Positions 9,725 through 63,206 of a stretch of 64,000 nt of DNA are shown piece by piece (position 1 is the stretch's first letter; every line of letters begins with the position of its first letter). The DNA comes from an uncultured Chlamydiae bacterium (GTDB taxonomy: Bacteria > Chlamydiota > Chlamydiia > Chlamydiales > SM23-39): positions 381,413 through 445,412 of the forward strand of contig CAWHDP010000001.1 in assembly GCA_963828125.1 (NCBI GenBank), written 5' to 3'. The translations under genes and the position numbers were made by a program. The notes under the pieces were generated by a model. It was not told where the DNA came from, made no database searches, and saw only the letters and a program-made list of their open reading frames with translations.

Positions 9725-9740
9725 CTTTTTTGCATGCCAG

Positions 9741-9759
9741 TGGTCCACAAATGGTCCAC
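9741..9759. repeat. Arm-type doublet TGGTCCAC-N3-TGGTCCAC (orphaned element end)
   Basis: 9725-9759 matches 45271-45305 with one mismatch. Confidence 0.75.
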
Positions 9760-9847
9760 AGAAATTATACCAAAGTAAGTTTTCCCTTCTGAGGGAAAGG
9801 GGATTTTGGATAAGATCTTTTTTCTTTCTTATATGAAATGATCACTT

Positions 9848-12800
9848 ATGAAATGGCAGCGCTTTTTTCTTATTATCTTTCTTCTCCCCACCTTGATGTA
9901 TGCTCTTAACCAAGAAGAATGTGCGAACATCTTTCACAAAATTCTTCCCGAATGGAATCGACACACTGAACTAATCCAGCAATTTCAGAAAAAGCCGTAT
10001 ACTCAAGAAGGACTTCAGCTCCTTAAGGAATCGCTCGCATGTTGCCAAAGAGCCGTGGGGCACTGCGATGCCATTCTAAATGATATCGCCAGTAAGAAAA
10101 AAGATGATCGCAAAAAACAGTGGAGAGTGGATTTAAAAAGTCGATGTGAGAAAGAAAAACGGGGGTTAAATGCAGAGATTAATCAACTGCAGATCGACAT
10201 CGGCAGGGTTGAGGCGAATATTTCTGCCACAGCTCTTTATAATACAAGCCTGGAAAAAGCTGCAGTAGCAGGAAATAAAGGTAGAAGTTGTGAAAGGGGA
10301 TTCAATAATGCCGATGAGGTTGTGTCGGTTCTCAATGAAATAGCAAAACTCTATGAAGAAGCTTTTTCTCTTACAAATCAAGCTCTATCTCTTATCAATC
10401 CTTATCCTCAAGAAGAAGACAAGGCAGCCTTAAGGCGTCAGGCAGCAAATTATCAAGAACTAGCTGAGAAATACAAAAACGAAGCAGTTGAGTGGCGGTC
10501 TGCCGCGGCGAATAATAGAGCAGTCTGCAAAGAGAAAATAGCAGAAATCAAATCAGACTGCAGGCTTTTGACAGAAAAAGGATTAAAGCGAAGCTGCTAT
10601 GACTTACAAAAACACGCCCTTTTCCTATTAGAACAATTACTTGATGGAAATACCAGCGAGGAAGCTTCTGCTCTCAAACAGGAACAAGCGCAATTAGAGG
10701 AATTTGTTGCTGCTTTTGAGAAAGAAGCTGATGACAACCGATTAACAGATGTAAAACCAGTTTTTTCTAAAGAGGAATTCGAGGCTCGGGAAAAAGAGAG
10801 GAGAGAGTTATTTTTTAAAAGTGATTTCCTTTTAAACCCTGATCTTTATTTGCCTGAAACGGTTAAAAATGAGCCTCTTCCTAGAATAGTTCCACTAGAT
10901 GGGCAAACAGGGAAAAAGGAAGGGGATTTTTCTCTTTATACAGATCAGTTTTATCGATTTTTGATCCAAAGCCACACGTCCGAGCCCGAGCTCACCATCA
11001 AAGTTCTTGAAAATGGACAGGAAGTCCATACAGAAAAAATCGCTCTTCCTTTTAAAAATACCGATAGTTGGGAAGACTATCTAAAGAATGGAATGGTTTT
11101 CATTCCGGATACAAAACTGAAGTCGGACTTCGGTTTAGACCTGCGTCTAAGTTTTGCTGCTGATCCACACAACAAATTTTCTTTGATTGTTTCACAAAAA
11201 AGTACGGACTTGCGTTACCAATTTGTGATTTCCTTAGGGGAAGACTCGGCACACTATGTGTGTCAATTTTCAGCTCCTCCACCATGGCAGCTTGAAACTT
11301 TGAGAAAACCAGCTTCGGCTCAACCCAATAAACCTATAAATTCTACTTCACTACCCTCTATAGATGTAACGCTGAAAGAAGGGGAGCAACGGCTCATCAC
11401 TTCGTTAGAATCGATGGTTTATCCTGTATTGGATCAGCTCGTTGAAGAGCTGAGAAAAGACCCTCTAGCGTTGGCTAGCTTTGTCCAAAATGAAATTGCT
11501 CTCGTCGATGCATTTTTCCATCAAGAAAATGGTGTCATTCATCCAGTAAGTGTTTATAGAAATCCTTGTACAACATTTCTTGAAAAACAAGGATCCGCTT
11601 GGGAGCAATGTCAGCTACTCGTTTACCTTTTACGCAAAGCGGGTTTCAAAGCAGTCTATGCTTTAGGAGACTCTTGCTCACTTCCTAAGGATTTTGTAGA
11701 GCGAATGCTTTTAACCAAACTGCCGGAAGACAAACAGGAAGCTCTGCTTAAATATCCATGGGTCTTATTTTTTGACGGTAGGGAATGGATCTCTCTTTTT
11801 CCTTGGATGAAGGATATCCAAGTCCATGAAGGACATGACCTTTACAGCTTTTTACCAGAAAAATATGCGGGCGCCGATCAATGGATCTTACAGTACCTGA
11901 AAGGAGACCAAGAAATCTTCAAGCATATTGGACCTGACGGAGACGACACGGCCGGGGTGCTTTTTGTCCGTTTTGTGGAAGAGAATTTAAGAAAACAGGG
12001 GTTACACTTAAGCGATGTTGGGGTTCATCGAATCCAACTAAAAAAACAATACTCCTGTTGGGGCGATTTTCCCCATCCCAGCATCCAATCTCAACCTCAA
12101 ATTTATAACTCATTAGATGCGATTCCCCAAATATATGCTTGGATGAAAATAGATATAAATTCTCGTCAAAATCCTAAAAAATTAATCTCTCGTACATTCC
12201 CGGTACCTTTTTTCAATTCGGGAGCATCTTTTATTCGTTTTGATACCAATGGGAACAATCAGACTCTTTTCGCTCAATTGGCAGGAAAAGATTTATCTGC
12301 AGTTCAGCTGGATTCCTCAGATCGGGTTATTGATATCTCTATTCAAGTAGAATTTCTTCTTGGGAATCAGAGTCTTGCCCAAAAACAAACGTTCTGGATA
12401 GAGAAAGGGACTAGTGCAGCACTTTGTTCACATTTCGGTGGGGATAGTCCCAAAGTGACCTCCCAATATTTTGAGCAATTTAAAGTTCAAAAAGATGAGA
12501 AAAAGAAACTTTTATCTCTTTTGGCCTTTGTTGGAGCCTCATATTTCGAGAAATGCAGTAGATCAACCAATATTCTTGCTGCCTTGCATAAGGTCAATCC
12601 TACCTCCCCATTTGCTTTTGGACTTGCTAAGCTCTCTCCTGACCTTTCAAAAGGCCCTTTTAGAGGAGAGGAAGACCTAGTACTTCCTCAAGTCGATATG
12701 TTCCGCTTTCATGCGGGTCCTTCGGAGTTATCAACTCCTTCAGCCTGGCATCAGGAGCTGCATACAGCGAGGACTGGTTTTGAAGCGCTCTCTCTAATTG

Positions 12801-15800
12801 ACGGTTCTTCGAATGAACATCAGATTTTACGAGAAATTTTTAAAGACGACTATGCTGTTTCTACGGTGAAACTACTGCAGTTAGCTCATCTTGAGCAACA
12901 AAAGCAAGGATTAGAAGGAGCGGGGTTTTTGACTCTTACTCCAGCTAGTTTTGAAGCTGCCAATAAAAACCCTAAGTCCGCTCAAAGCCAGTATTTTTCT
13001 AATTTAAAAGACTTCAATCTTTCTGATTTAAAGACTGTATCGCCGTGGCAATGGAACATGCTGCAAACTCTTATGGATCCGAATCAACCATGTAGCAGTT
13101 GGACCTATGCTTATATGACTCCTGGATTGGTAACTAGCTTAGATGGAATGCGTAAGGAAATGGGGACTATCATCATAAGCCCTCATGCATGGTATGCCCT
13201 GATTTCTATTAACGACATCGTAACCAATGGAGGTCTGGGGACCCCACTTCCCAACTACTATCTTTCTCCCTGGGCGATTAGAAATTGGGATCTTGTCCCT
13301 ACATCTAGTAGCTATACGAATGGCTATGCACTCCAAGTTCCTGCGCAGACTAATTTCTCGAACCTTCCAGCTCATCCTGTTCCAACCATTGAAAAATCTA
13401 TACCAGGAAAGAGAGATTGGATTTCTGATGTAAGAGCAGGTTTTAGAGATAGCTGGAACTTTGTAGCAGACCCCATTGATATTGTATCAGGAGCGTTCTA
13501 TATCGATGAAATCGATCTGGTTCTTCCAGGACCTTTCCCTCTAACCATTCGCCGTAACTATAATAGCCAAAACCCACTCATTGGTGATCTCGGTTGCGGA
13601 TGGAAGCTCAGCTTAAATCCGTTTCTTGTAGACCAAGACGGTAAACGCTTTGCTGCTGAATTAGACGGAACGGTGATCGTTTACAGCTACAATCGGCAGA
13701 CCGATCGATGGGAAGTCTTCCCCGAAGAAAATCCAGAGCTCTCCAATTTTAATCAGCAGGGAATAGGCAGCTCTGCTAGCCCTTTCCATTCCTACATCGA
13801 AAATGATGTCTTATATGGAGCGGATGGATCAAAAAGATCCTACAAAGAGGGACTTCTTCAACAATGGTCAGATGCTAGAGGGCATACCCTCTCTTTCTCC
13901 TATAAAAATGATCGCTTATCCCGTATCGAAAGTTCCAATGGAGATTTCTGCGGGGTCCATTACAATCATGAAGGCAATATCTCTGAAATCTATGCAAAAG
14001 ACGGTCGGCGTATTTCTTACGATTATGATTCTCAAGGAGATCTTGTTAAAGTCACGCTCCCCAATACGGCTGAGATTAGCTACACATACGATCGGAACCA
14101 TCGGATCATTCGAGAAACAAAGCCTCATGGGAAAGTCCTAGAAAACGTCTATACCGATAAGGGACAAGTCAAAGAGCAAAGATCTCCCATGGGTTATAAC
14201 CAACAAATGATCACGACAGCTACATTTGAATATGTCGATGGGAAAACGATTGTCGCAGATGCCGAAGGAAATAAAACCACATATCAAATCCATGATAAAC
14301 AGATCTACAAAATCACCGATCCTCTTGGTTTTATCACGCTTCAAGCTTGGTTTATAGACAAAGAGTCGTGGTTTGATCCAGAAACTGAGCGAGTTGTGGA
14401 ATGGAATCAAAAGGGCGGAGCTATCCGAAGCCTACAGTCCATAACGGATAAACGAGGACTCATAACCTCTTACCTTTACGACGATCGTGGGAATCCTGAA
14501 TTCATCACGATTGAAGGTGAGGATCTCACAGGAAGAGGGGAATCAAAAGCTACCAAGAAACTTGCCTACAATGAGAGAAATCTCTGCATTAAAGAAGAAG
14601 TCTATGGGCAAAAAACGCTCACTTCCTATGACACTACATTTCCTTATTTACCAAAAAGAATCGAGAAATACAGCGAAAACACCCTGACTTCCTACGTTGA
14701 TTTCGATTACAACTCCTTGGGACAACTGGAAAAAGAAGACCGTTCTGGGGCGATCACTGTCTGGCATTATAACGATCGGGGTTTCCCAAAAGAGAAAATC
14801 CAAATGACGGGAACGGATGATCCAGATGTTGTCACCACTTATACCTACAATCATCAAGGGCAATGCATAGAAATCAGAGCCATCGACGGAACCCAAGAGA
14901 ATGACTACGATCTTATGGGGAATCAAATCGAATCAAAGGTATTTTCACCTTCGGGGGAGCTGATTGCTGCATCATATATCGGATACGATCTGAATAGCGC
15001 TCCTACATGGAAGCAGACAGAGAATTCTGAGAATATCGTCTACTTTGATTACCACGCCTCAGGCCTCGCCAAAGCAAAGAGACAATCTCTTACCCCCAGC
15101 CGTTCGATTGCCTATACCCTTTACGAATACAATTCTTGTGGATATCTCATCGAAGAAACAGATCCTAGAGGATATGTAACTTATAGAGACTACGATCCCC
15201 TTGGCCGAGTAAAATCGGAAACTAAAGAGGGACATACAGCTCTTTTTTCTTACGAAGCAGGGGGGCTCCTTGAAACTCTCACATCGCCATCTGGAGGTCA
15301 AACAACACGTCATTACACAACCAATGGCCTTCTCAAAGAGGAGATTTATCCAGATGGAACGAAGAATACGACAGTTTATGATGTTTTAGGGCGTCCGGTC
15401 TTAGAAACAAAGAAGGGAATTTCTTGGGAAATCACATACGACGACCCCCATCATCGAGTGATAAGAACTCATCTAGCGACGAAAAATTCTGAAATCAGCG
15501 AATTTGATCCGAGAGGAAATCTCATCAAATTTACTGATGCTGCAGGTTATACCTCAGAAAAAACCTATGACAGTCTTAATCGGCCTAAGACCGAGATAAG
15601 TCCTAGCGGCAAGCACACAAGCTGGAAGTATCAGGATAACCTTGTCGTTTGCACTCTTCCAAGCGGCGAGACCACCACCACTCAATATGCTGGGGCAAGA
15701 GCTATTAAATCAGAGACCAGCGACTCTAGAGGGACTTTTATTTCTGTCTCAGAACTCCAGGTTGACCTTGAGCATGACAAGGAAGAAGTCATTGAAGGAG

Positions 15801-18325
15801 ATGAAAGAACAGTCACTTGGCGAAATGCTCTTGGGGTGCCAATTAAGATTGAAAAAGGCGAAATCACAGTTAAGTACGAATATGACGCTTGTGGAAATCG
15901 CATTGTTTCAATCGACGGAGATGGAAGAATCACCCGCCAAGAATTCGATGGATTAGGCCGCTTGACCCAAAAATATTTACCCGATGGAACCGTTCTTGAA
16001 TTTGTCTATGATTTAGACTCTAACTTAGCCGAATACCACCTACCTAACGGCAATGTCTGGAAAGCTTCGTATGATTCAATGCATAGAAAGAAATCAGAGG
16101 AGCTTATCTCTTCAAGAGGTTCCTCTGAACGCTGGACCTTCTCTTATGAAAATGGCTACCTCAGAGAAGCTAGAGATCCTATGCAACGGACTCATACTTA
16201 TCTTTATGATGACTATGGAAGGGTCTTCCAAGATAGCGTTGAAGGCGGCAAGCGTACTTATACTTATGAGCCCAGGGGATTTCTAAGGGCAGCAAGTCAG
16301 ACTACAGATGTAGCCTCTTCCTGGCTATCTAGCTGGGTATATGGGTCGCAAAACGAAAATTCTCTAGTAGAGCGCTCGTATGATGCAGATGGTAATTTAG
16401 CTCTTGAGTCAGTCTATTTGAATTCCAATCTGATCCAAGAGACAAAGCAGAAATGGACGGCTAATAGTCGTTCTTTGCAGATTGGAAACCATGTTCGTGA
16501 TTTCTTCTATCAGAACAATCAGCTCATTCGGGTTTCAACTCAAGCTGTAGGAGTATCCTATTCGTATGAACTCAGCGGAGCTCTGAAGAGCAAAAATAGC
16601 CGACTGAGTTCTACTACGATCAATTATAATTCCTCAGGGTTACCAGAGACTGTTGTAACCAGTCTACCTGAAGGCTTTTATCAGGAGCAGCTCAATTGGT
16701 ACCCTTCAGGAAAAATCTATACCTATACTGCTCCAGGAAGAGATCAGAGTTTTTCTTACAATGAAAGAGGGCATTTAATATCGACAGGGTCGGAAAAATA
16801 CGATTTTGATTTTGGGTCTGCAGGCGCCGGCGTTCGAACAGCCGCCCCAGGTTGGTATGTGCCGCAAAACGGATTAGATGATTTCGGTAGAATTCTTGCT
16901 TCGGTGTTTGAAAAGACGTCTCTTTCAACAGGTTACAATGCAATAGGAGAGGTGATTACTCATGGTCAAAAACAATTGTCTTGGGATCCATGGGGCAAAT
17001 TGACCAAAGTGACCGACCCTTCTTATCTCTGGGAAGCCTCTTACGATGCTTTGGGTAGAAGACTCCAGACTCGCTATACAAAATCAGGAGAGCAAACTTT
17101 AATCACCCATTCTCTCTACGATCCTGAAGAAGAATTTCAAGAGATCGGGGTACAAATCGAAGGGAAAACCTTTTGGAAAATTTATGGGCCGGATGCTTGC
17201 GATGCGATCAGTGATGAAACAGGAGCATCCGTTACCCTAATGCACAATGCATTGAGGCAGCTGACAGGAGTTGTTTCTCACCAAGGGATTCTCTATAGCG
17301 AAACGCCCCCTTCCTTCTATGGGCCTCTTGAAATAAATCCTTCTGTTTCTTCAGATCTGATTTCTTATGCCCAGTCTTTGAATTGGCATAGTAAGGCCCA
17401 AGACCCAACAGGTTTCATCTGGATGGGGGATAGATACTATGATTCTAGAAGCGGTCAATTCTTAAGCCAAGATCCGGTGTCTTACCCGATGTGCCTAGAT
17501 CTATATGCTTATGCTAATGGGGATCCAGTTAATTACTTTGATCCAGATGGTCGATTTGCGTCTCCTGTGTATCAATCAGTCAAACCTGTTGTGATCGGTG
17601 CTTTACAGCCTTTCAACGGATTAAATCAAGCCATTCAAGGCTTTAACGCTATTCCCGCCTATCTTGCAAATCACGATCTGATGCGTTCAGGCTCTTTCCA
17701 GGTAGGTTCTTTTGATTTACCTTGTGGTGGAATAGGATTCATCAATGGGATTAACAATCAACAAACTAAATCTATAGCAAGTGCACAACAATTGAGCCAA
17801 TATGCAGGGGGAGCCAAAGTTTATGGGATTTATAATGCAACCAACTGGGATAGTATTCAGTGGGTATCAACAGTGATCGATGTCCTAGAATGCGGACTAG
17901 GACATATGAGAATGCATACTCCACCCGTTCAATTATTAAAAAATCAATGGAATCACTTTATTGCCACACATGAACCTGATGAAAAATTTCTACAGATTAG
18001 CCACAGCGGAGGAGCCCTTCAAGTCTACAATGCCCTTTTGACCTCGCCAAAATCAGTCCAGCAAAGAATCATTAGCCTAGCTCTTGCCCCCGCTGCCATT
18101 ATTCCAGAAGAACTATGCTTTAGGTCTTATAACTACATGAGTAGGCGGGATATTGTTACTCGTCTCGATGTCATAGGGAAGATAAAATATGGAAATCAGT
18201 TGCAAGTGCTAGAACCTCATCCTAACGCCAATTTTTGGGATCATGAGTTCTTAAGTCCTACTTTTGCACCAAAGATAAAAGATCATATTAAAGATTACAT
18301 TGAAAACTATGGGGGTAAAAAATGA
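9848..18325 (+). CDS. Giant RHS/YD-repeat toxin with signal peptide and alpha/beta-hydrolase tip
   Basis: Hydrophobic N-terminus, DUF6531-like DPIDIVSGAF, YD repeats, core end PVNYFDPDG, tip FINGINN...HSGG. Confidence 0.9.
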   Translation: MKWQRFFLIIFLLPTLMYALNQEECANIFHKILPEWNRHTELIQQFQKKPYTQEGLQLLKESLACCQRAVGHCDAILNDIASKKKDDRKKQWRVDLKSRCEKEKRGLNAEINQLQIDIGRVEANISATALYNTSLEKAAVAGNKGRSCERGFNNADEVVSVLNEIAKLYEEAFSLTNQALSLINPYPQEEDKAALRRQAANYQELAEKYKNEAVEWRSAAANNRAVCKEKIAEIKSDCRLLTEKGLKRSCYDLQKHALFLLEQLLDGNTSEEASALKQEQAQLEEFVAAFEKEADDNRLTDVKPVFSKEEFEAREKERRELFFKSDFLLNPDLYLPETVKNEPLPRIVPLDGQTGKKEGDFSLYTDQFYRFLIQSHTSEPELTIKVLENGQEVHTEKIALPFKNTDSWEDYLKNGMVFIPDTKLKSDFGLDLRLSFAADPHNKFSLIVSQKSTDLRYQFVISLGEDSAHYVCQFSAPPPWQLETLRKPASAQPNKPINSTSLPSIDVTLKEGEQRLITSLESMVYPVLDQLVEELRKDPLALASFVQNEIALVDAFFHQENGVIHPVSVYRNPCTTFLEKQGSAWEQCQLLVYLLRKAGFKAVYALGDSCSLPKDFVERMLLTKLPEDKQEALLKYPWVLFFDGREWISLFPWMKDIQVHEGHDLYSFLPEKYAGADQWILQYLKGDQEIFKHIGPDGDDTAGVLFVRFVEENLRKQGLHLSDVGVHRIQLKKQYSCWGDFPHPSIQSQPQIYNSLDAIPQIYAWMKIDINSRQNPKKLISRTFPVPFFNSGASFIRFDTNGNNQTLFAQLAGKDLSAVQLDSSDRVIDISIQVEFLLGNQSLAQKQTFWIEKGTSAALCSHFGGDSPKVTSQYFEQFKVQKDEKKKLLSLLAFVGASYFEKCSRSTNILAALHKVNPTSPFAFGLAKLSPDLSKGPFRGEEDLVLPQVDMFRFHAGPSELSTPSAWHQELHTARTGFEALSLIDGSSNEHQILREIFKDDYAVSTVKLLQLAHLEQQKQGLEGAGFLTLTPASFEAANKNPKSAQSQYFSNLKDFNLSDLKTVSPWQWNMLQTLMDPNQPCSSWTYAYMTPGLVTSLDGMRKEMGTIIISPHAWYALISINDIVTNGGLGTPLPNYYLSPWAIRNWDLVPTSSSYTNGYALQVPAQTNFSNLPAHPVPTIEKSIPGKRDWISDVRAGFRDSWNFVADPIDIVSGAFYIDEIDLVLPGPFPLTIRRNYNSQNPLIGDLGCGWKLSLNPFLVDQDGKRFAAELDGTVIVYSYNRQTDRWEVFPEENPELSNFNQQGIGSSASPFHSYIENDVLYGADGSKRSYKEGLLQQWSDARGHTLSFSYKNDRLSRIESSNGDFCGVHYNHEGNISEIYAKDGRRISYDYDSQGDLVKVTLPNTAEISYTYDRNHRIIRETKPHGKVLENVYTDKGQVKEQRSPMGYNQQMITTATFEYVDGKTIVADAEGNKTTYQIHDKQIYKITDPLGFITLQAWFIDKESWFDPETERVVEWNQKGGAIRSLQSITDKRGLITSYLYDDRGNPEFITIEGEDLTGRGESKATKKLAYNERNLCIKEEVYGQKTLTSYDTTFPYLPKRIEKYSENTLTSYVDFDYNSLGQLEKEDRSGAITVWHYNDRGFPKEKIQMTGTDDPDVVTTYTYNHQGQCIEIRAIDGTQENDYDLMGNQIESKVFSPSGELIAASYIGYDLNSAPTWKQTENSENIVYFDYHASGLAKAKRQSLTPSRSIAYTLYEYNSCGYLIEETDPRGYVTYRDYDPLGRVKSETKEGHTALFSYEAGGLLETLTSPSGGQTTRHYTTNGLLKEEIYPDGTKNTTVYDVLGRPVLETKKGISWEITYDDPHHRVIRTHLATKNSEISEFDPRGNLIKFTDAAGYTSEKTYDSLNRPKTEISPSGKHTSWKYQDNLVVCTLPSGETTTTQYAGARAIKSETSDSRGTFISVSELQVDLEHDKEEVIEGDERTVTWRNALGVPIKIEKGEITVKYEYDACGNRIVSIDGDGRITRQEFDGLGRLTQKYLPDGTVLEFVYDLDSNLAEYHLPNGNVWKASYDSMHRKKSEELISSRGSSERWTFSYENGYLREARDPMQRTHTYLYDDYGRVFQDSVEGGKRTYTYEPRGFLRAASQTTDVASSWLSSWVYGSQNENSLVERSYDADGNLALESVYLNSNLIQETKQKWTANSRSLQIGNHVRDFFYQNNQLIRVSTQAVGVSYSYELSGALKSKNSRLSSTTINYNSSGLPETVVTSLPEGFYQEQLNWYPSGKIYTYTAPGRDQSFSYNERGHLISTGSEKYDFDFGSAGAGVRTAAPGWYVPQNGLDDFGRILASVFEKTSLSTGYNAIGEVITHGQKQLSWDPWGKLTKVTDPSYLWEASYDALGRRLQTRYTKSGEQTLITHSLYDPEEEFQEIGVQIEGKTFWKIYGPDACDAISDETGASVTLMHNALRQLTGVVSHQGILYSETPPSFYGPLEINPSVSSDLISYAQSLNWHSKAQDPTGFIWMGDRYYDSRSGQFLSQDPVSYPMCLDLYAYANGDPVNYFDPDGRFASPVYQSVKPVVIGALQPFNGLNQAIQGFNAIPAYLANHDLMRSGSFQVGSFDLPCGGIGFINGINNQQTKSIASAQQLSQYAGGAKVYGIYNATNWDSIQWVSTVIDVLECGLGHMRMHTPPVQLLKNQWNHFIATHEPDEKFLQISHSGGALQVYNALLTSPKSVQQRIISLALAPAAIIPEELCFRSYNYMSRRDIVTRLDVIGKIKYGNQLQVLEPHPNANFWDHEFLSPTFAPKIKDHIKDYIENYGGKK

Positions 18326-18852
18326 AGTTATTTTTTAACATTGGAGTGATCCTAAGTATGTTCTCTTTTCTTTTTGGGTGTTCATCTTTTGGCTATCAGT
18401 CTCCTCGTTATGTAAAACTAGCTGATGAAATTACGGAAAAAACCGCGAAGAAATTGAAAGAACAAAAGAATCTATACCTTGCAGGAACAGGGGGGCAAAT
18501 GATGGATGACATACAGATGATGGCTATGAGCTTTGATTATTATCAAGAGGTCGACCTCAAAACAGCTCGAGAGCTTATTGTCCATGTCATCAATGAATAT
18601 CTGTCAGCAATCAATAGTAATAAAGAAATAAAACCTTACCTTCATGAATATCCATTTACCGCCAAAAACGTTGAAATAAGAATTTGGGTTTTTGAGCCAA
18701 ATGGTTCTAATCCACCTTTAGATAAAATCTATTATATCTCAGCTATTAATGGGAGCTTGGCTTATTATCTAGATCTCCCTGAAACGCACTCAAGACGAGC
18801 CATTTGTAAAGAGACTTATGAAGAAGCTTCTCGAGCAATTTCTTCTGAATAA
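18322..18852 (+). CDS. Putative immunity lipoprotein
   Basis: Overlaps the RHS stop; lipobox-like LFGC; similar to 28636-29289 (GG.M, PYL.EYPF). Confidence 0.75.
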   Translation: MKLFFNIGVILSMFSFLFGCSSFGYQSPRYVKLADEITEKTAKKLKEQKNLYLAGTGGQMMDDIQMMAMSFDYYQEVDLKTARELIVHVINEYLSAINSNKEIKPYLHEYPFTAKNVEIRIWVFEPNGSNPPLDKIYYISAINGSLAYYLDLPETHSRRAICKETYEEASRAISSE

Positions 18853-52484: not shown

Positions 52485-55400
52485 ATGGCTTCTTTTTTAG
52501 GAATTTTTATGCGCTGGTTTTTCATTTTAGGTTTTGGAGTTCGTCTCTTTGCGAGTTCCTTTGATGAAGTTATGCCTTCCTCATCTGAGGAAATTTTTTC
52601 TCTGACTTCTGATCTTTTAATCGATGGATATGTTTCTGCTTCGTCTGGTCAGATTTCTATCAGCGAAATAGATCTGCAAGTAAGGGGAGCTCAAGATCTT
52701 CTTTTGAAAAGAACCTATGTGCCTCCTCAGATCCTGGGGCGTTATGAAGACAAAGATAAGTTAGATCAGCTCATGCTGGGAAAAGCCCTTCATCAGCTTG
52801 AAACGAAGAGATGGGTGGTCAATCCTCATCTCTGGGCTGGCTACAACCGAAATTCTTCCTACTTTCAAGTGCGCGATCCACAGGGATTCGTTTTAGAATT
52901 TCAGATTCAAGGGAACAAGGGTATTTTAAAAACCAATTCCTATGGGTGCAGCAACCTAAAAGGCGAGAATCCAACTAGTTCAGCCGATATTCGCAATATA
53001 GAGCTTTCGATAGATGGGGATTTAGTCAAAGTTGTTTGGCCTGATGGGATTCAACGCCAATATTTCAAATGTTATCCAGGAGTTTATCGGCTTGAAAAAG
53101 AGCTTCTCTCAAATGGGAAGATGATACGGTATGAATATAATAGTCAGGGACTTGCCAAAATTTCATCTTGTGATCCAGCTGGACAATTTGTTTATGCCTC
53201 AATAACGAGAGTCAGTGGCAATCATTATCTAGGTTCAGATGGCAGAGAAGTTGATCTCGTGTATGAAACCCGAGAGATTAAAGGCGAGTATAAAAAAGAT
53301 GGCTATAAGGAGAAGGCTAGTTTTCAATTTCCAGTAATGACTAGAAGCTCAAATCCTACCTATACAAATACAGTTGGGTACAACGAAAGGACCCTTCTCA
53401 ATTCCTATGATGCAAAAGACTATCCTGTCTCATGTACCTATTTTCAAAATAAAAATGTGTCTTCTCGTATTCAAACTTTTTCGAACCCTTCAGGCTCTTT
53501 TTCTTTTTCCTATGACCCAGTTATTGCAGGGCAAAAAAGCGGTTCTACGACTGTCACTCATCCCGATGGTGTGCAAACAGTGTATCGCTTCAACAAACTC
53601 TTTTTGCTAGCAGCTATTGAGAATTGGTTTGGAGCCAAGTTAGTCAACAAGAAAACCTTTGAATATGATCATAAGCAACACATCAAAAGCATAGAGACTT
53701 TGGATGGAAACGGAAAGCTTCTCATTGCAAAACGATTCGAGTGCGATCCTGCTGGGAATGCGACTGTAGAAAAAACAGAAGGAGATTTCGGGGTCTTTTG
53801 CATAAAGCGTAAATTCGATAAAAACCGCGTCATCCATGAAGAATATGATGATGGTTTGGAATACGAATTTACCTATTTAGGCGATACGCGGCTAGTCACC
53901 TCTAAAACGACTTTGGAATCAGGAAAAGAGCTTCGAAGGACAATCTATTCTTATGATAATGCCAACAATCTCATTCAAAAAGAGGAAGAAGGGAAGACAA
54001 GAACAACCTATACCCTTTATCAGAGCAATCCTTATTTGCATCGAGTTGAGTGGGAGGAAAAAAGCGATTGGAAGGGCGAACTTATCCATAAAATTCACTA
54101 TGGATACGATATTTGGGGGAATACGAATAGGGAAGAGCATTTTGGTTCAGATGGAAAAATCGGTTACACTATTGAGCGAACCTATAATAAAAAGGGGGAG
54201 CTCCTTAATCAAACTAACCCCATTGGAGAGCTGGCTTCCTATCAATATGACTCAAGAGGCAGATGTTTTTATGAAGAACCCGTTTCAAACGGCCTCATCA
54301 TTAGACGCACATTCGATGCTAAAGGTCGCCTTAAAGTACTCAATGAGGGCGACCATGAAACCCGATTTGACTACAATGCATCCGATGAGATGATCGAGAA
54401 AACCGATTATCTGGGTTATAAAATAACGTACCACTATGACCCTGTTCATGGGAAACCAGACCGGATTGAAGAGCCCTCTGCCATTACAGAAATTGTGTAT
54501 GACGCCTTTGGCAGAGAACAAGAGAGGACCGATCCGTATAAGGCCAAAACTCTAAAAACTTATAACAGTTACGGCGACGTTGCCAAAATCATTCATCCTG
54601 ATGGGGGAGAAGAGGTTTTTGATTATTTTCCCAATGGGCTGCTTCAATCTCATACAGATGCAGATGGGTTAGTAACCGCTTACACCTATGATGCTCTTAG
54701 CCGCACAAAAGAAAAAACTATAGGGACGTCCACTATCACCTTCCTCTATGATGGCTACGATCTCAATAAAACAATTGATGCAGCGGGTTTTGCTACTGAA
54801 TATCAATACGACCTTGCTGGCAAAAAAACTCAAGAAAAACGAGAAACCCGAGTAATTCGTTATGGCTACGATGCACTGGGTTTTTTAGCTTGGGAGGAAA
54901 AGGGAGGGCGTCGAATCGAATATACGAACGACTTTTTAGGAAGGGTGTGCGAAAAATCAATAGATGGGGTTTTGAGTACCGCATGGACTTATGATGGAGG
55001 AGGTAATGTCTCTACCATTCAACAGGGCGATAGTCTCACCAGATATACATATGACCCGTATGATCGCTTAGTAGAGAAAATCGATGCAGAAGATTATAGA
55101 ACTACAATATCGTATGAAATAGGGCCTCAGATTCTTTTAAAAAGAAGTACGGACCCGATGGGTACTGTAACACTAGAGACGTACAATCCGAAGCTACAGC
55201 TACTGAAAAAGGAAGTAGCTGGCCAGTCAGTTGAAGAATTTGAGTACGACAAGCTATTTCGTCTGAAAAAACAAGATCATATCACCTTTGATTATACGCT
55301 AAATGGCAAAAGACAATCGATTAAAGAAGCGAATCTTAGGATTACGCAATACACCTACACTCCGGGGGATCTGCTTTTGACCAAACAAAAGCCCGATGGA

Positions 55401-57092
55401 ACTGTGTTGCTTCACGAATATAATACCCAAGGACGTCTTGCAAAAGTGGGAACTCGAGAGCTTCAATACGATGCCCTGGATCGAGTGATCGGGGGAACTG
55501 AATTTTCGAGAAAACTCGACGCGTTTGGGAATGTCATTAGAGAAGAATGGTCTAACGGCTTATGGCAAGAGAGCGATTATGATGATTGGGATCGCCCTCT
55601 AATCCGAAAGCTACCGGACCAAAGCCAAATCGAATATGAGTATGAAGGACCTTTCTTGAAAAAAATCACAAGGATTTCAAGTGAAGGGAAACAGCTCTAT
55701 TCTCACGCCTATGATCAATATGATGAAAAAGGAAATCTTCGCTTGGAAAAGGGACTTTTCCTTTGTACTTATGATTATGACCGAACCGGAAGAAGAGTTT
55801 CTCAGAATAGTCCCTATTATAACGAAGCGACCGTTTACGACCCATCCGGCCATCTGATTCAACGAGGAGATCGACTCTATACTTACGACGCAACTTCCCA
55901 AATGACCTCAGAGTCTGGACGATTTAGCGCTCGATATGATGCTCATTACAACCTACAAGTCTTAAATGGTGAGTCAATTGCTGTTGATCCATTGAATCAA
56001 ATCGAAGGACTGGAATACGATCTGAATGGCAATCTACTTAAACCTGGATTTGTCTATGATGAATTTGATCAGCTGATCGAATCCACTGGAGAAAAGCATG
56101 TATACGATGCTCTGGGGAGGAGAATTCAAAGAGGTCAAACCTCCTTTATTTATATTGGGGATGAAGAAATAGGCGCTTTTGAAAATGGAGAACTCAAAGA
56201 GCTTAAAATTCCAGGCTTCTCCACTCATGTAGCCATCGAAATAGATTGCACACCGTATGCTCCGATCATAGATGTTCAGGGTGTCACCCGTCTTCTGATT
56301 GATTGGGAGACAAAAGAGATCTTCAAGGAGAATGATTGCGATGCTTTTGGAGTGGGTCTTTCTGAAGACGTTCCCTATGCTTACTCCGGGAAAAGATACG
56401 ATTCCAAAACAGGACTTGTCTACTTTGGAAAACGCTATTATGATTCTTCTTTGAGACGCTGGTTAACGCCAGATCCAGTTGGATCTTCTAATCATTCAAA
56501 TTTATATCAGTATCTTTTTAATAACCCTTATTTATACCAAGATAGCAATGGAGAGTTCGCTTTCGCAATTCCTCTTTTATTTTGGGGGGCAGAATTGGCT
56601 GTTCCAGCGATATCAGCTTGTGTGACAGCAATGATTTATGGAACAGCAGCAGGTGCTGTTGCATATGGTGGATATAAACTTGTAGAAACATTCAATGACC
56701 GTGGCCATTCGCCCATGGGAGATTATTACTCTGGAAATCTAACTTCTTCTCCGAATTCCTTAAACTGGACCATGAAGAGCGGTAGCGTAGATCCAACTTT
56801 GCCAGCAAATCCAGATGATTTATTAAAGAGACCAGGTTGGAAAGAAACTACCCATCCAGAAGCCGGAAAGAAAGGACATAGAACATTTGAAAATGGAAAA
56901 ACAGGTGAAAAATTAAGACACGATAAAGGAAAGCCTTGGGAAACAGGCCACAAAGCTCATGATCATTATCATCGGCCTAATCCGAATGCAACAGGGAGAC
57001 ATGATGAATATTTAGATGGAAAAGGAAATCCAACAAGAGATCAAAGCGATCCATCCCATATTTATTCTCCAGAGGGGATATGGTGGAACTGA
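52485..57092 (+). CDS. RHS toxin with hydrophobic N-terminus and His-rich putative nuclease tip
   Basis: YD repeats, core end NNPYLYQDSNG, tip LRHDKG...HDHYH. Confidence 0.9.
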   Translation: MASFLGIFMRWFFILGFGVRLFASSFDEVMPSSSEEIFSLTSDLLIDGYVSASSGQISISEIDLQVRGAQDLLLKRTYVPPQILGRYEDKDKLDQLMLGKALHQLETKRWVVNPHLWAGYNRNSSYFQVRDPQGFVLEFQIQGNKGILKTNSYGCSNLKGENPTSSADIRNIELSIDGDLVKVVWPDGIQRQYFKCYPGVYRLEKELLSNGKMIRYEYNSQGLAKISSCDPAGQFVYASITRVSGNHYLGSDGREVDLVYETREIKGEYKKDGYKEKASFQFPVMTRSSNPTYTNTVGYNERTLLNSYDAKDYPVSCTYFQNKNVSSRIQTFSNPSGSFSFSYDPVIAGQKSGSTTVTHPDGVQTVYRFNKLFLLAAIENWFGAKLVNKKTFEYDHKQHIKSIETLDGNGKLLIAKRFECDPAGNATVEKTEGDFGVFCIKRKFDKNRVIHEEYDDGLEYEFTYLGDTRLVTSKTTLESGKELRRTIYSYDNANNLIQKEEEGKTRTTYTLYQSNPYLHRVEWEEKSDWKGELIHKIHYGYDIWGNTNREEHFGSDGKIGYTIERTYNKKGELLNQTNPIGELASYQYDSRGRCFYEEPVSNGLIIRRTFDAKGRLKVLNEGDHETRFDYNASDEMIEKTDYLGYKITYHYDPVHGKPDRIEEPSAITEIVYDAFGREQERTDPYKAKTLKTYNSYGDVAKIIHPDGGEEVFDYFPNGLLQSHTDADGLVTAYTYDALSRTKEKTIGTSTITFLYDGYDLNKTIDAAGFATEYQYDLAGKKTQEKRETRVIRYGYDALGFLAWEEKGGRRIEYTNDFLGRVCEKSIDGVLSTAWTYDGGGNVSTIQQGDSLTRYTYDPYDRLVEKIDAEDYRTTISYEIGPQILLKRSTDPMGTVTLETYNPKLQLLKKEVAGQSVEEFEYDKLFRLKKQDHITFDYTLNGKRQSIKEANLRITQYTYTPGDLLLTKQKPDGTVLLHEYNTQGRLAKVGTRELQYDALDRVIGGTEFSRKLDAFGNVIREEWSNGLWQESDYDDWDRPLIRKLPDQSQIEYEYEGPFLKKITRISSEGKQLYSHAYDQYDEKGNLRLEKGLFLCTYDYDRTGRRVSQNSPYYNEATVYDPSGHLIQRGDRLYTYDATSQMTSESGRFSARYDAHYNLQVLNGESIAVDPLNQIEGLEYDLNGNLLKPGFVYDEFDQLIESTGEKHVYDALGRRIQRGQTSFIYIGDEEIGAFENGELKELKIPGFSTHVAIEIDCTPYAPIIDVQGVTRLLIDWETKEIFKENDCDAFGVGLSEDVPYAYSGKRYDSKTGLVYFGKRYYDSSLRRWLTPDPVGSSNHSNLYQYLFNNPYLYQDSNGEFAFAIPLLFWGAELAVPAISACVTAMIYGTAAGAVAYGGYKLVETFNDRGHSPMGDYYSGNLTSSPNSLNWTMKSGSVDPTLPANPDDLLKRPGWKETTHPEAGKKGHRTFENGKTGEKLRHDKGKPWETGHKAHDHYHRPNPNATGRHDEYLDGKGNPTRDQSDPSHIYSPEGIWWN

Positions 57093-57496
57093 TTATAATT
57101 AAAAAGTATCTTCATGAATTTCACGACGGGGCTCTCCTCAATATTGAGCATAACGGACATACATATATTTTCACTTTAGAGAGCGCAGAAATAGATCCCT
57201 TAGATATGAAAGATAAAATTATTCTTTCGCGACGAGGAACAATTAAAGGTAAATTGCATCTTGAAGATGTTCAATATGTAAAAATCAATGAATTAATGTT
57301 TCAGGATGAATTGAAAATGCAATATGATTATGGGTCTATTTTTGATTTAAATATTAAAAATGATATTGTTGAAATGCAAGTTAGTTGGAGAAATTCTCCA
57401 AAAAAACCCTATGTTAATGATTTTTCTACAATTATTCTAAAAGTCAAAAATATATGGTGGGAAAATATCCCTGATTTGCTAGACCCATTTTGGTGA
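57080..57496 (+). CDS. Putative cognate immunity protein
   Basis: Overlaps the RHS stop; paralog at 24521. Confidence 0.8.
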   Translation: MVELIIIKKYLHEFHDGALLNIEHNGHTYIFTLESAEIDPLDMKDKIILSRRGTIKGKLHLEDVQYVKINELMFQDELKMQYDYGSIFDLNIKNDIVEMQVSWRNSPKKPYVNDFSTIILKVKNIWWENIPDLLDPFW

Positions 57497-58187: not shown

Positions 58188-58337
58188 CACTCACTCGCTG
58201 CTCACAGCAGTAGAGTAACCCATCCGCCGCCTTCTTTTCAACTGCCGACTGCTGGCCAGTCACGCCCAAAATAGGGCCGAATTGTGTCTCAACTGTATCG
58301 CGATTGTGTCTGAAAAAAGGGTTATTTTTCGGATATC
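58188..58337. repeat. 150-bp element-end repeat, copy 2
   Basis: Near-identical to 52293-52442; no tRNA core beside it. Confidence 0.9.
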
Positions 58338-59131: not shown

Positions 59132-59482
59132 ATGGATTTGGATACAATTCAAGCGTTTCGGGCCTTATGTGGAAAAGTCAGAGAGATGACTTATATTTTG
59201 GACTCATGGCTTGCTCTACAATCGAAGCAAAGCGATTCGATAGAGTCAAGGCAGTCTAAAGAAGCGAAAGCTCAACAGAATCGATTTATACCCCTAATCA
59301 AATGGCCGCATGACTGGCCAACACTCGGAGCATTGAGGCATTTAGCTAAAAACCGTCACAAAAACGGTCTAAAGGAAATATTCCTTAAGGTTGGGAAACG
59401 GGTGGTGATTGATGAAAAAGCATTCTTTCAGTGGATCAAGGAGCATTCCAAAAATAAAGCTCATTCCCTGCATCGCCAGTAG
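59132..59482 (+). CDS. Excisionase-like DNA-binding protein
   Basis: WPTLGALRHL...NGL...KVGKRVVIDEKAFFQW; RBS GGAGG. Confidence 0.65.
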   Translation: MDLDTIQAFRALCGKVREMTYILDSWLALQSKQSDSIESRQSKEAKAQQNRFIPLIKWPHDWPTLGALRHLAKNRHKNGLKEIFLKVGKRVVIDEKAFFQWIKEHSKNKAHSLHRQ

Positions 59483-59524: not shown

Positions 59525-61472
59525 GGCCATTTTCATAACTTCATCATTCGCCACCCCATCGGTGGTGATCAAGCCGCTTGATTTTCCGGCGCTTTTTGCA
59601 CCTGCGTCTGTGCCCGCTTGCGCGGCCTGACCGGCAAGTCGATAGTACTCAGCAGCCACTCGAACACATTTCGTTGCTTTTTTCCAAAAAATCTCTCCGC
59701 AGCTGTGCCGCCGTCCTTTCGTGAGGTAAAAAAATTGTGCAACACGGTGAGGGCTAGCAATTTGTTGGCACTCAGTTTGTGGAGTGCGTGATGTTTCAGT
59801 GATAAGACCCCGTTCCTCCCTTCGACACACGAGCTTGACCTTTGGAATAGAGCAGCGCATTGCCTGGCCTTTTTGCCCCAAACCGCTTGCTCGCGGGGAG
59901 TAAGGTTAGCCCAGGGACCATCCCTTTAGCGGACCACTAAACGCGAGATGCTTTGAATCATCACGACCTTTTGGCTTTTGTCTGTGCATCGCTTCAAAAC
60001 CATCTGGAGATACTCTATGGCGACAAGGCACTCGAACGCCTGACGGCTCTGCTCGTCTAATGCGAGTCCCTGCATGACCTGGAGTAAACATCGGGAAAAA
60101 AACGCCAGAGTTTGTACCATTGATTCAGTCGCGCCTTTGGCTTTCCCGAGCTTTTTCCTTTGGCCATCTGTACTGTCGATCCGTTCGGATACTGTCTCAA
60201 GGATCTCGTGGACCTCTACTAATTCCTTCCGCAGCTGTTCAGGAGATCGGGTGGTGCCCGTGCTGAGATCGTAAGGATGGTAGCAGGTAGTAATGGCTCT
60301 TCTGGCATCCCTCACGATCTGGTAATCTTGTTTAGCCTCCTCTCAGACTTTCCGACATTCTTGCTCATGGCTGTCTTCCTCGAGCAACTGTTTGCCGATC
60401 TTTGCAACTTGCGGAGTGGGGTTGTCGAGCGAAGAGCCCGTTGTCTGCACGACCTCTGTGAGTTTTTTGAACCTCTCTTGTTTCATTGCCGTGGAGTCGC
60501 TGAGAGCTTTTTCAGCATGCTGCACTCTTCGGGCTAGCACACTTGTTAGCCCTCTTGTGATATCTTGCTGAACGTGGAATAAATCCGATGCCTTACTCGC
60601 GCCTAAGAGCTCTTGGGCATACTTTATAATACCGCCTGCTTCATCGCCCGTAACCTGCACGATTTTTACATTCAGCCCATTGGTGGCTGCTTGCGACACT
60701 CTCATCCAGGTCGCTGCATCTCGCTTATCCTCCTGTTGCTCTGCGAGGATAAAACCAGAATCTGGTTCCATCAGAATAAGAGTCATGTTCTCCATGATGA
60801 AGTTCTCATCAACAGCACCGGTCATCTCCTTCAAAGACATGCCCTCGGCCATGCGAACGCGCTCCTGTTTGCCGAACTCAATCAATTGCTGGTTAATCTG
60901 AGCGGACACACCGTGCAATGCGCCAATGGATGATCCGACGAATGCACTGAGTTTGCTCAGTTCCAGGAACTTCTGTAGGGACGGCAGCCCACAACCACCT
61001 GTTGCGTGGAATACAAGATAGGCCCCTACCAATATGCCGTGTAAATGGGCCAGCCCTTCGGGAGACTCATAGAAGAGAACCACTTTGGGGTCTACACTGT
61101 CCTTGGGTTGATTGACCCTTCTGACCCAAGCTTGGACCGCGGGCCTTGATACGCCGTATTCCTCCGCGACTTCTCTCTGGGTTCTTTTTTTCTCAATGAC
61201 TTTCCGGGTGGCTTCCGCCTGCTTGGCCCGATCAATGACGCGATATATTCTTGTATTTTTTGGCTCGACCGAAGATGCTGTTTCCATAGCTCGTTTTTTG
61301 CAACCCTTTAGCTTCAACAACCAAAGAATTTGCTATAAACGAGCTATTTTTTGAAAGAACCCTCCATCAGGCCGCGCAAGCGGGTGCAGACGTGGGTGCA
61401 AAAAACATCGGGAAATCAAGCGGCTTGATCACCACTGATGGGGCGGCGAATGATGAAGTTATGAAAATGGCC
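59525..61472 (-). mobile_element. DUF6399-type IS copy 2, transposase inactivated
   Basis: Same ends and length as 7777-9724; nonsense codons at 60343 and 59926. Confidence 0.9.
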
Positions 61473-62299
61473 GGTTCGATAACTCCCATTCGATAACGTA
61501 ACGACTGAACCAGTCGATGATTGCAAACAGATATCCAAATCCAGCAATCAGAGGGATATACGTGATATCTCCTGCCCATGCCTGATCGGGATGATCCACG
61601 CTTACACTCCTCAGCAAATACGGGAACTTTTTGTGTTCCCGATTTGCCGTGCTCAAATTTGGCTTCGGATAAATCGCTTCTAGTCCCATCTTCTGCATCG
61701 CGCTTCGAACCCGTTTGGGTCCGACTAAAAATCCCTGGATTCTCAGCGCTATCGTCATGCGCCTTCTCCCATAGAAGGGAGTTTTAAGGTACTGCTCATC
61801 AATAGCACGCATAAGCAGGAGATCTTCTTCTGTCGGCTTGCGAGGATCATAATACACTCCCGATCGGCTGAGTCCAAGAAGCCCGCATTGTCTGACGAGC
61901 GAAAACTTCCCGTCCTGCTCAATGAGGGCTCTCCGCTGGTTCAGGTCAAAGCACCCAATTTTTTTTTAAGCCACTCGACTTCCATCTTCAGTCGGCCAAT
62001 TTGTTCAAACAGCTCAGCTTTTTCCTGAACGTCTGTATTCGATTGATTCGCCTTGCCTCGCTTGGCGAAAATTTGTGCTCCCGTTTCCAAAAATTGTTTT
62101 TTCCATTCGGTGAGTACCAAGGGGTGAGTACCTAATTCTCCCGCAATCTGGGTGGCTGTCTTTTCTCCCTTTAGAATTTCTATCACCGCCTTCAATTTAA
62201 ACTCCGGTGAGTATTGCTTCCTAGTCTTGGCCATATAGACCCTCCTTTTGATTGGAGGTACTAGCTTAAACACCTGTCCGAATTTCTGGGACCATTATA
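61473..62299 (-). mobile_element. IS3-family element, 3'-truncated
   Basis: OrfA RKQYSPEFK...EVEWLKKK; A9 run at the OrfA/OrfB overlap; OrfB PFYGRRRM, WAGDITY. Confidence 0.88.
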
Positions 62300-62839
62300 T
62301 TCTTCGCTGGTTGGAATCCGCTCGCGTCCCCTTGATTCTCGGAGCTTGCTGAAGCGGAGGAGAGGGTTTTCTTTGAGCCAGCCTCGTTGCTTAAACCCGT
62401 AGGTGAAGACGACTGATATAGCGGCCATATATCGGTTGACGGTGGCGGGATTGCGCTGGGTGCCCTTCATTGTTGTTCCTTGAGCCAATTTCTTTCGGCA
62501 ATTGTCGATGAGGTCGTATGAAATGAGATTGAGTGCATACTGGCCGATCTCGTTTCTCCACCAGAGAAGGAGACGTCTAGTATCTTTTGCGTTCTTTGGT
62601 TTGGAGGGGAGAATCTCTTCGAGATAGAGATCAATGAGTTCGGCGAGGGTGCGTTTCTTTTTGGTTTGTTCAGGAAAGTAGGTTTCTTGACGGCGGCGGG
62701 CCTCTTCTTGCTTTGCCCAGTCCCTGGCTTCTTGTAGAGTAGGAAAACTTTTGCCTCCTGGAGCGTGGCCATCTTTGGCTCGGATTTGGACTTGGTAGCT
62801 AATTCCTCTTTTGTTTTTGCGGCGCTTGATGCTTGCCAT
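62300..62839 (-). pseudogene. Tyrosine integrase N-terminal half, cut by IS3
   Basis: Paralogous to the other integrases (LPSKPKNA, ATVNRY); catalytic domain absent. Confidence 0.88.
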
Positions 62840-63026
62840 TGTTTAATCTCCACTTTTTAGGGTTAAAAAGTGAGCAACGATGGCAATCGCCGAGAGGCTA
62901 TTGTTGTGGAGTGCTGTGGGTGATAGGGCCTCACTGTGTCTGGAGTGTGTCGCGCCAGCGACAATCGCTGTTTGGGCACACTCTGATAGGACACATAAAG
63001 CTTTGTAAATCACGCCTTTAAAAGTT

Positions 63027-63070
63027 TGGGGCAACCTGGACTTGATACCTAAGGCCCGACGGGTTATGAG
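63027..63070 (-). repeat. att core: tRNA(CAU) 3' half, aberrant T-arm version
   Basis: Identical 44 nt; identity stops at the end of TTATGAG (anticodon loop). Confidence 0.85.
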
Positions 63071-63189
63071 GGAGGGAGATTTGCCTCATATCCAGCACCA
63101 TCCAGCCGCTTTCCGAGTAATCATAGAGAAATCTTCAGCAAAAAGCTACTGGATTTTATCGGATGTTGATGGAAAAGTGGGTGGCTCAC

Positions 63190-63206
63190 TGCACCGCTAG
63201 TGCACC
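63190..63206. repeat. Arm-type doublet TGCACC x2
   Basis: 11-bp period, 120 bp from the core. Confidence 0.55.

Follow-up and report, generated by a model that had tools for sequence, protein, structure and literature searches.

How did a row of tRNA fragments and integrases come to lie in a chromosomal region that has no tRNA gene? This question is raised by a 64-kb stretch of DNA (hereafter, the window) from an uncultured Chlamydiae bacterium, which forms the terminal 64 kb of contig C1 in a genome of 2.37 Mb assembled as two contigs, C1 and C2 (genome G000; completeness 95%, contamination estimate 0.94%). Chlamydiae are usually credited with few integrative elements. Between positions 9725 and 63206, the window carries four copies of the 3′ half of a tRNA(CAU) gene (hereafter, cores), tyrosine integrases, and genes for RHS proteins; insertion sequences (ISs), whose limits were compiled by hand, make up about 23% of this region, and RHS genes make up 35%. 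We consider it likely that the region represents a tandem stack of six or seven islands targeting tRNA(CAU), which is ectopic and in decay. From right to left, its units are called A, B, C, C2, and D, and the integrases are named after them. For comparison, we used 103 species genomes from 53 genera of the same family.

Cores and integrases of the stack

The four co-oriented cores reported in a first-pass annotation of this DNA are present, starting at positions 26298, 45130, 52225, and 63027 on the same strand, and their 44–52-nt matches go far beyond chance (E-values of 1e−9 to 1e−21 against the whole genome). Four tyrosine integrase open reading frames (ORFs) in one direction (PF00589/PF24624; pairwise identity 33–48%) are likewise found, and the ATG starts of three of them (62839, 52056, and 44988) lie 142–188 bp from a core. 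Of these, intB and intC are full length with catalytic motifs present, whereas intA was cut short by an IS3-type element at residue 180, so that its catalytic domain is missing; in intC2, the frame changes near residue 314, and both the core and the left end have been lost next to an IS. Close relatives of intB, intC, and intC2 lie directly behind an intact tRNA(CAU) gene in G094, L015, and G003; the intC relative in L015 is 91% identical and the intC2 relative in G003 78%. The named relatives of intC come from records titled Chlamydiae or Parachlamydiales. The closest named integrase belongs to Legionella adelaidensis (51% identity to intB; L139:3916–9080), where it lies 4 kb behind a tRNA(CAT) gene and beside rpoD; no core was located ahead of this integrase.

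Position of the stack relative to its tRNA gene

ARAGORN found no tRNA in the window. The last 750 bases of the window are part of a 1563-bp IS, and joining them to C2:17737–18550 restores this IS exactly, with an identical 9-bp repeat on both sides. An intact tRNA(CAU) had been proposed to lie to the right of the window; the rebuilt continuation contains neither a tRNA(CAU) nor an integrase, and its first tRNA is a tRNA-Leu about 32 kb on. The only tRNA gene that matches the cores is at C2:563979, approximately 547 kb away on the opposite strand, and it has a stack of its own, with three cores and units 82–98% related to the window units. Both flanks of this tRNA-linked stack match the congeneric genome G006, indicating native synteny. 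Comparison of the window locus with relatives, which the first-pass annotation had suggested, showed that the flanks of its low-GC zone have other neighbors in both G006 and G010, with no tRNA at those places. Therefore, the absence of the tRNA from the continuation, the natively placed stack at the tRNA gene, and the different neighbors in relatives together place the window stack at an ectopic position, at a rearrangement junction. It follows from this detachment that the order of the units is not a simple time series.

We also considered whether a single giant array had been divided by an inversion around the terminus, with which orientation and GC skew are compatible, but rejected this: the tRNA-linked stack of G006 continues with the same genes as C2, and the repeats of the IS that ends the window are intact.

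The matching tRNA is probably tRNA-Ile2, by elimination. Three CAU tRNA genes occur in G000, and the other two are presumably initiator and elongator tRNA-Met, judged by tRNA identity rules. ARAGORN labels the core-matching tRNA as Met. A CAU tRNA-Ile2 would be modified by TilS, and a PF01171 gene is present in the genome; comparison of the core-matching gene with tRNA-Ile(GAU) gave only 51 versus 46 matches, which is a weak test. A DUF1207 gene, which we take to be chlamydial, lies near the tRNA(CAU) gene of G000.

The assembled sequence was compared with contigs from four runs of one soil study, which cover the window units. In run X1, possibly the source sample, contig depth is even over the unique parts (12.7–14.7), which weakly supports a single chromosomal copy. 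IS copies are 99–100% identical across C1 and C2, and this, like the flat depth, supports residence of the stack in the same cell as the rest of the genome. A joint between 58279 and 52396 in run X2 fits an internal repeat and was not used as evidence for a circle, and runs with small shares were set aside as regards habitat.

Several observations were made around these loci. The tRNA-linked stack (C2:563979–632000, L001–L004) contains four RHS genes, two AbiE pairs, an Hsp70-like gene, and type I-E CRISPR genes (cse1, cas3) broken by an IS. At C2:1289312 (L005), another detached core has on one side a B-type right end that comes with a 2823-aa RHS gene and on the other side an integrase and left end of type A; it is nested in a tRNA-Thr stack in the opposite orientation. 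To the right of the window, C2:18779–21945 (L010) carries thiamine-phosphate-synthase-like, MFS, apparently mitochondrial-carrier-like, and NUDIX genes, identified by eye.

Island ends and crossover site

Each integrase clade is marked by a distinct short direct repeat (period, 11 bp), located approximately 135 bp before and 120 bp after the anticodon loop; these clade-specific repeats are putative arm-type sites of the integrases. Among 45 units examined between consecutive cores, both ends could be classed in 19, and the arm classes agreed in 14 of these (shuffle mean 5.2, maximum 11); two of the five mismatches were B-type left ends that the classifier had filed as E. Units A and B of the window each have the same arm type at both ends. 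At clade-G right ends in many genomes, tRNA identity starts at the first base of the loop, and at two secondary sites of G000 (C1:122.7 kb and C2:579.7 kb) it stops at the last base, which brackets the crossover to the 7-nt anticodon loop, where we infer from these sequences that it occurs. The break of identity noticed earlier in the core at 63027 does fall there, at the first base of the loop CTCATAA. Accretion in tandem of at least five or six elements, which had been proposed, is thus borne out, with at least six found and the crossover placed in this loop. Seven or more integrase clades use this one tRNA.

The flank at 63071–63175 was also tried as a chromosomal secondary site and was rejected, as it is the clade-G right end found in many genomes. 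Elsewhere in G000, two different island right ends (C1:122626–122760 and C2:579694–579775) stop at CTCATAA and then run into identical non-tRNA sequence, which forms a shared secondary attachment site. At C2:1390154, a clade-G-type left end with an arm repeat and an integrase remnant lies directly behind tRNA-Lys(TTT), representing a related clade with another target.

Composition of the units

The rightmost part is the IS that breaks off where the contig ends (63251–64000, plus strand), and leftward of it lies the right end of an upstream clade-G island (63071–63207, minus strand; arm repeat GGTGCA twice at 63190–63206). The integrase and left end of this island were not found in the continuation (no integrase in C2:17737–50000). 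Core 1 (63027–63070, minus strand) comprises the tRNA(CAU) loop and 3′ half, with identity beginning at the loop, and carries the T-arm variant V described below. Unit A begins with the remnant of intA (62261–62839, minus strand; left arm repeat GACACA twice at 62935–62951) and two ISs (59525–62299), namely, an element with a DUF6399-type transposase (59525–61472) and an IS3-type remnant. A 116-aa ORF in this unit (59132–59482, plus strand) is a possible excisionase, offered as a lead only: its nearest named clusters are excisionases (score 0.87–0.89), and its homologues recur within islands of other genomes. Next come a second, core-less unit A right end (58188–58337, minus strand; 93% to 52293–52442), a gene for a 1535-aa RHS protein with a variable 174-aa tip without an assigned family, together with a 138-aa candidate immunity gene (52485–57496, plus strand), and core 2 with the right end of the unit (52225–52442, minus strand; arm GACACA three times). 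Core 2 has a normal T-arm and two substitutions.

Unit B, of 7093 bp, is the sole fully intact island in the window. It consists of the full-length tyrosine integrase gene intB (50995–52083, minus strand; left arm TGGACCA twice at 52123–52141), a cargo (45350–50553, minus strand) encoding an AEP-TOTE primase/helicase/DUF559 nuclease (944 aa), a TPR protein, a 485-aa protein with an HSQG hydrolase motif, and a small membrane protein, and core 3, a variant V core, with the right end (45130–45305, minus strand; arm GTGGACCA twice). Beyond it lie the full-length intC (43927–45087, minus strand; left arm TGCACA twice) and an IS66-like element without a target repeat (40700–43314, plus strand), which joins the left part of island C to island C2. 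The latter contains intC2 (39580–40678, minus strand), an IS pile of IS110, an IS66-like element, and a remnant (34872–39270), and an RHS gene in two reading frames (28636–34693, minus strand), split near 31.0 kb (1220 and 583 aa) and encoding a tip that resembles a hydrolase; after it comes a paralogue from the lipoprotein family of candidate immunity genes. Core 4, again of variant V, and the right end of island C2 occupy 26298–26479 (minus strand; arm TTCCGCA twice).

Unit D (18934–26297) is a remnant without an integrase, containing a short left end that a group II intron relic interrupts, a NUDIX gene, a BRO/PDC-S13-like gene, higA, IS pieces, and a 124-aa C-terminal terminase fragment (20355–20729). 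The intron relic (25650–26260 and 23177–23902) was inserted about 35 bp inside the unit D left end and was broken by later insertions. To the left of unit D are a gene for a 2825-aa RHS protein with a signal-peptide-like N-terminus and an alpha/beta-hydrolase tip (SHSGG, DUF687-related), followed by a gene for a 176-aa lipobox protein (9848–18852, plus strand), and a B-type right end (9719–9759, minus strand; arm GTGGACCA twice), whose core is missing beside an IS at 7777–9724. In total, the window holds the right end of a lost clade-G island, A with its dead integrase, the intact B, a fusion of C (left part) with C2 (right part), the remnant D, and the core-less B-type right end at 9719, amounting to six or seven islands.

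Just beyond the region 9725–63206, within the same low-GC zone, is an AbiL/RloAB-like defense pair (5821–7739, plus strand). Adjoining it within 4875–7739 is a second AEP-TOTE gene, 82% to the unit B copy and interrupted by IS21; this part of the window probably represents more decayed units.

The description of the cargo in the first-pass annotation stands for the RHS genes with a small downstream gene and for the primase-helicase-nuclease; its "packaging-like genes" amount to the single terminase fragment. It had also seen no conjugation or capsid genes, and this agrees with our searches: the conjugation ATPase PF19044 and the TrwC relaxase PF08751 had no match in G000 (other relaxase families were not searched), and no capsid family was found in the window proteins scanned (49 in Pfam and 13 in PHROGs). 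When the same proteins were considered for the hallmarks of a prophage or phage-inducible chromosomal island (capsid, portal, small terminase, or primase-replication module), the large-terminase fragment was the only hit.

RHS proteins and their partner genes

Each of the three window RHS genes, one of them split, has a small gene next downstream, and the RHS core model TIGR03696 scored above its cut-off in three window proteins. Members of the 1500-aa class share one body (75–77% identity) and have unrelated tips and different partner genes, which in sequence is the pattern of polymorphic toxins. The 2825-aa protein is 98.5% identical to a copy in the tRNA-linked C2 stack, and the tip of its class, as well as others, matches DUF687 above the cut-off. 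The model of this hydrolase tip has a pLDDT of 89 and resembles alpha/beta hydrolases (450 of 500 matches at E ≤ 0.001; TM 0.35–0.52); in an alignment of 53 sequences, conservation reaches 90% or more at Ser, Asp, and His positions. The lipobox partner has about ten paralogues in G000 and 261 relatives, the named ones coming from Rhabdochlamydia and Simkania. The likeliest interpretation of the sequences and the model is that the RHS-hydrolase tip and its lipobox partner constitute a secreted lipase toxin with periplasmic immunity. Complex prediction for the tip and the lipoprotein gave a score of 0.02, which weighs neither way, and a fold search with the lipoprotein gave a best Z of 8.2, no better than background. 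For the tip of the 1535-aa protein, an atlas search reached 0.89 at best, with unnamed clusters; Ntox37, at 0.85, is a lead only. At C1:108000–149000, with no tRNA nearby, RHS bodies are also clustered in large numbers around a secondary site, together with orphan tips and candidate immunity genes.

The proteins matching DUF687 have a history in chlamydiae. Those of Chlamydiaceae are listed as putative inclusion membrane proteins in PMC3048545, and those of Chlamydia are described in the relevant part of PMC11878206 as lacking catalytic residues.

Alleles of the cores

Variant V is defined by changes to the variable loop and T-arm, namely, two substitutions and two insertions, and occurs in three window cores and one C2 core. 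After removal of one duplicate contig and three duplicate loci, V was found in 8 of 70 cores and 0 of 35 tRNA genes, in five genomes or contigs. A search with 28 letters, allowing at most one difference, covered 400 other genomes of the order, of which only 49 are from this family; the allele was present in 2 of the 400 and in three metagenome contigs, two of them near duplicates. It is shared across genera. ARAGORN made no call for a tRNA with the V 3′ half, even with lowered thresholds. Sequencing error was rejected as the source of V, since it occurs in G052, G006, the three metagenome contigs, and the contigs of run X1.

V cores follow three different right-end types and several left-end types, and near-identical island ends carry different core alleles. 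Overall, 27 of 59 cores equal the host's own tRNA allele and 32 differ (shuffle mean 5.4; kinship uncontrolled). A tie of the alleles to left or right ends was sought and not found. In G094, two islands of type B have an allele that the other cores of that genome do not share. Loop-site replacement accounts for such cases, and a second exchange route is also needed, either recombination within the 45-bp repeat or a more 3′ crossover.

A further-reaching proposal, which we regard as improbable, is that V is a maintained attachment allele that inactivates the tRNA. Islands with V at the left end would then insert only into junction cores and never into the gene, building tRNA-independent stacks. 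Where V is the first core behind a single tRNA gene (G052, G006, and L046), excision of the first island at the loop site would fuse V to the 5′ half, destroying an essential tRNA and thereby locking the island in. The stacks would represent a locked, exchangeable arsenal with which chlamydiae in the same host cell compete, and it would include an active lipase toxin whose relatives, the DUF687 inclusion proteins of Chlamydiaceae, are dead.

Occurrence in the family

The tRNA(CAU) 3′-half pattern matched 80 of the 103 family genomes, and reversed controls gave 0. At least two copies were present in 45 genomes and at least three in 24, some of these being duplicate whole genes; at L062, for example, two complete tRNA(CAU) genes lie 3.9 kb apart (G015:C1:31314 and 35251) rather than a gene and a fragment. 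G094 has five cores across 111 kb. Displaced-fragment stacks in G000 also occur at tRNA-Asn (seven fragments), Thr, Phe, and Leu, and displaced fragments are present at Tyr as well; the stack at C1:263153–317045, in which tRNA-Asn(GTT) is followed by seven displaced 3′ fragments over 54 kb, is longer than the stack studied here. RHS cores were found in 74 of the 103 genomes, with the highest count, 18, in G000. Among 58 stretches fetched around cores in other genomes (668 kb, many short), one contained an RHS core, and in four further genomes an RHS core lies 2–11 kb from a tRNA(CAU) core on the same contig. Therefore, the toxin cargo does not define the element family: the stacks are common and RHS genes rare within them, so the family is general and the heavy toxin load mostly particular to G000.

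Comparison with known systems

The structure as such is of a known kind, tandem tRNA-island accretion; what is unusual is the detached position, the shared damaged tRNA copy, and the toxin load. The first-pass annotation knew of no described family of this sort. This holds in that no description of tRNA-island stacks in chlamydiae was located in the literature covered, which did not extend to supplements (Additional File 1 of PMC3482391 may list chlamydial RHS tips), but not for the architecture.

In the description given in PMC4383910, Islander tandem arrays share the tyrosine integrase, the displaced 3′ tRNA fragments marking ends, the anticodon-loop subsite, and, for part of the units, a fragment plus integrase in each member. 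Units A (with its truncated integrase), B, and C have an integrase with its own fragment, while C2 lacks a left core and D an integrase. An Islander array (PMC4383910) is headed by the intact target tRNA beside it, whereas no tRNA heads the window stack and the matching gene is 547 kb off. Furthermore, the same description counts four tandems of at least three members in 2168 genomes, whereas G000 alone has at least three such stacks, and the "damage" described there is a small deletion near the discriminator rather than a T-arm allele. Accretion of cis-mobilizable elements (CIMEs), as well as of integrative and mobilizable elements (IMEs), as outlined in PMC5704250, similarly involves distantly related integrases with one target, insertion into resident attachment sites, decayed members, and chimeric internal attachment sites. 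Unlike the CIMEs and IMEs presented there, the stack is hosted by an intracellular-type chlamydia, and the PF08751 and PF19044 matches are absent from G000.

Prochlorococcus tycheposons, likened by description (10.1101/2020.12.28.424599), are small tRNA-targeted cargo elements without conjugation genes, with an inward-facing integrase and insertion beside partial tRNA copies. They are described there as having one specific integrase per tRNA, whereas seven or more clades use one tRNA here; the cargo here consists of conflict genes, and most window units have no replication module. Among environmental chlamydiae, Pam100G of Protochlamydia amoebophila is a modular tRNA-linked island of about 100 kb but, in the account of PMC548262, differs in its Gly-tRNA, short repeats, F-like tra unit, and modules set by GC content instead of per-unit integrases and cores. 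RHS polymorphic toxins, as surveyed in PMC3482391, share the RHS core, variable tip, adjacent small gene, and orphan tip-partner modules, and chlamydiae are listed there as toxin carriers; unlike them, the window tips and partners match no curated toxin or immunity family. The main window tip retains the Ser motif, unlike its DUF687 relatives in Chlamydia, which are called catalytically dead in the part of PMC11878206 concerned with them.

Proposed mechanism and alternative explanations

In the islands, a tyrosine integrase lies just inside the left end, and according to the explanation that we favor, the clade-specific repeat pairs present at both ends would serve as arm-type sites. Integration would cross over in the 7-nt anticodon loop, depositing a tRNA 3′-half copy at every junction, and the junction cores, besides the tRNA gene, may take in further islands of other clades. 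The stack at its lineage-specific rearrangement junction may have been moved by ISs or begun there at a secondary site, afterwards growing or decaying independently. Transfer between cells would need a helper or DNA uptake, because no conjugation or capsid module was found; iOriT islands are described in 10.64898/2026.01.13.699239 as having an origin of transfer without a relaxase. In G000, the islands are a main vehicle for RHS proteins, and they also bear anti-phage genes. The RHS proteins themselves are most likely Sec-exported contact toxins with adjacent immunity genes, in one class with a variable tip and in another with a lipase-like tip and a lipoprotein partner.

Several points weigh against this explanation. 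Among island ends from hosts chosen to differ, pairs with similar left ends had the same core allele in 8 of 65 cases and pairs with similar right ends in 0 of 26; the alleles thus track neither end as the textbook model predicts, so that an extra exchange process is needed. Neither an excised circle nor an empty site was seen in the contigs of the four soil runs, and the circular junctions that the first-pass annotation anticipated did not appear there as any core-to-core joint. None of the RHS tips and partners reaches a curated toxin or immunity family, toxicity and immunity being suggested by layout and lipobox only. The assembly contains a foreign piece of 17.7 kb with 63% GC (C2:1–17736, L008).

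The earlier picture of an intact tRNA just right of the window, with the stack as a time-ordered archive of weapons and the newest nearest the tRNA, fits the layout of cores and integrases, and the other C2 stack has such a form. However, the continuation is fixed by the exact rebuilding of the IS with its matching target repeat and has no tRNA(CAU), the tRNA holds its own stack in native synteny, and most window units are broken, so we give the archive next to no credence. An assembly artifact, in which a stack from another strain or species was joined via repeats, also has a very small probability in our judgment, slightly above that of the archive. The nif segment of alphaproteobacterial type with 63% GC at the start of C2, the lack of a single contig piece from the soil runs covering the whole stretch, and the 82–98% similarity of the window units to the C2 stack units would agree with it, but depth is even across the units, the IS copies are identical to others in the genome, the contig-end IS has matching repeats, and the contamination estimate is low (0.94%). 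The segment itself carries nifB, nifA-like, and GGDEF/EAL genes close to Roseiarcus and is attached in mid-IS, a chimeric join; removing it closes both contigs into one circle.

A specific origin within the favored explanation would be a single composite circle, excised and re-inserted by IS activity in circularly permuted form. In this case, one attachment site (attP) would originally have comprised the right end of clade G at 63071 together with the clade-G-like left end at 26297, and A, B, C, and C2 would have inserted into it later. A clade-G right end does open the stack, a clade-G-like left end follows the last core, the pieces of unit D are 98–99.6% identical to the distal part of the C2 stack, and the left end of the upstream clade-G island was not found. 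Since the left end at 26297 has no arm repeat or integrase, however, the pairing cannot be demonstrated, and no repeat marks the zone limits; we consider this origin unlikely. Similarly unlikely, in our assessment, is a neutral pile-up at a high-traffic site in an IS-rich genome, with RHS proteins that act on the eukaryotic host or are relics rather than antibacterial weapons. It would suit the seven other displaced fragments at tRNA-Asn and those at Thr, Phe, Leu, and Tyr, the listing of Chlamydiaceae DUF687 proteins as putative inclusion membrane proteins in PMC3048545, the split RHS gene, and the rarity of RHS in other fetched stacks. In contrast, two window RHS genes (4.6 and 8.5 kb) are intact despite heavy decay, each with an adjacent small partner, tips and partners are exchanged together in the 1500-aa class, and host-directed toxins of amoebal symbionts are described in PMC3482391 as having no immunity genes.

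Implications

A tRNA hot spot shared by at least seven integrase clades, with readable attachment sites, supplies ready candidates from which tools for site-specific integration could be made, and it represents a concrete path for genes to flow. As the detached stack shows, an array can rest on displaced tRNA fragments in the absence of the gene, and island finders anchored on tRNA genes would miss such arrays. With the V allele, it becomes possible to test by what route core alleles move and whether islands are locked in by damaged fragments. Finally, the presence of 18 RHS cores, accompanied by partner genes, in a single genome of the intracellular type points to conflict of bacterium against bacterium within hosts and suggest an origin for DUF687.

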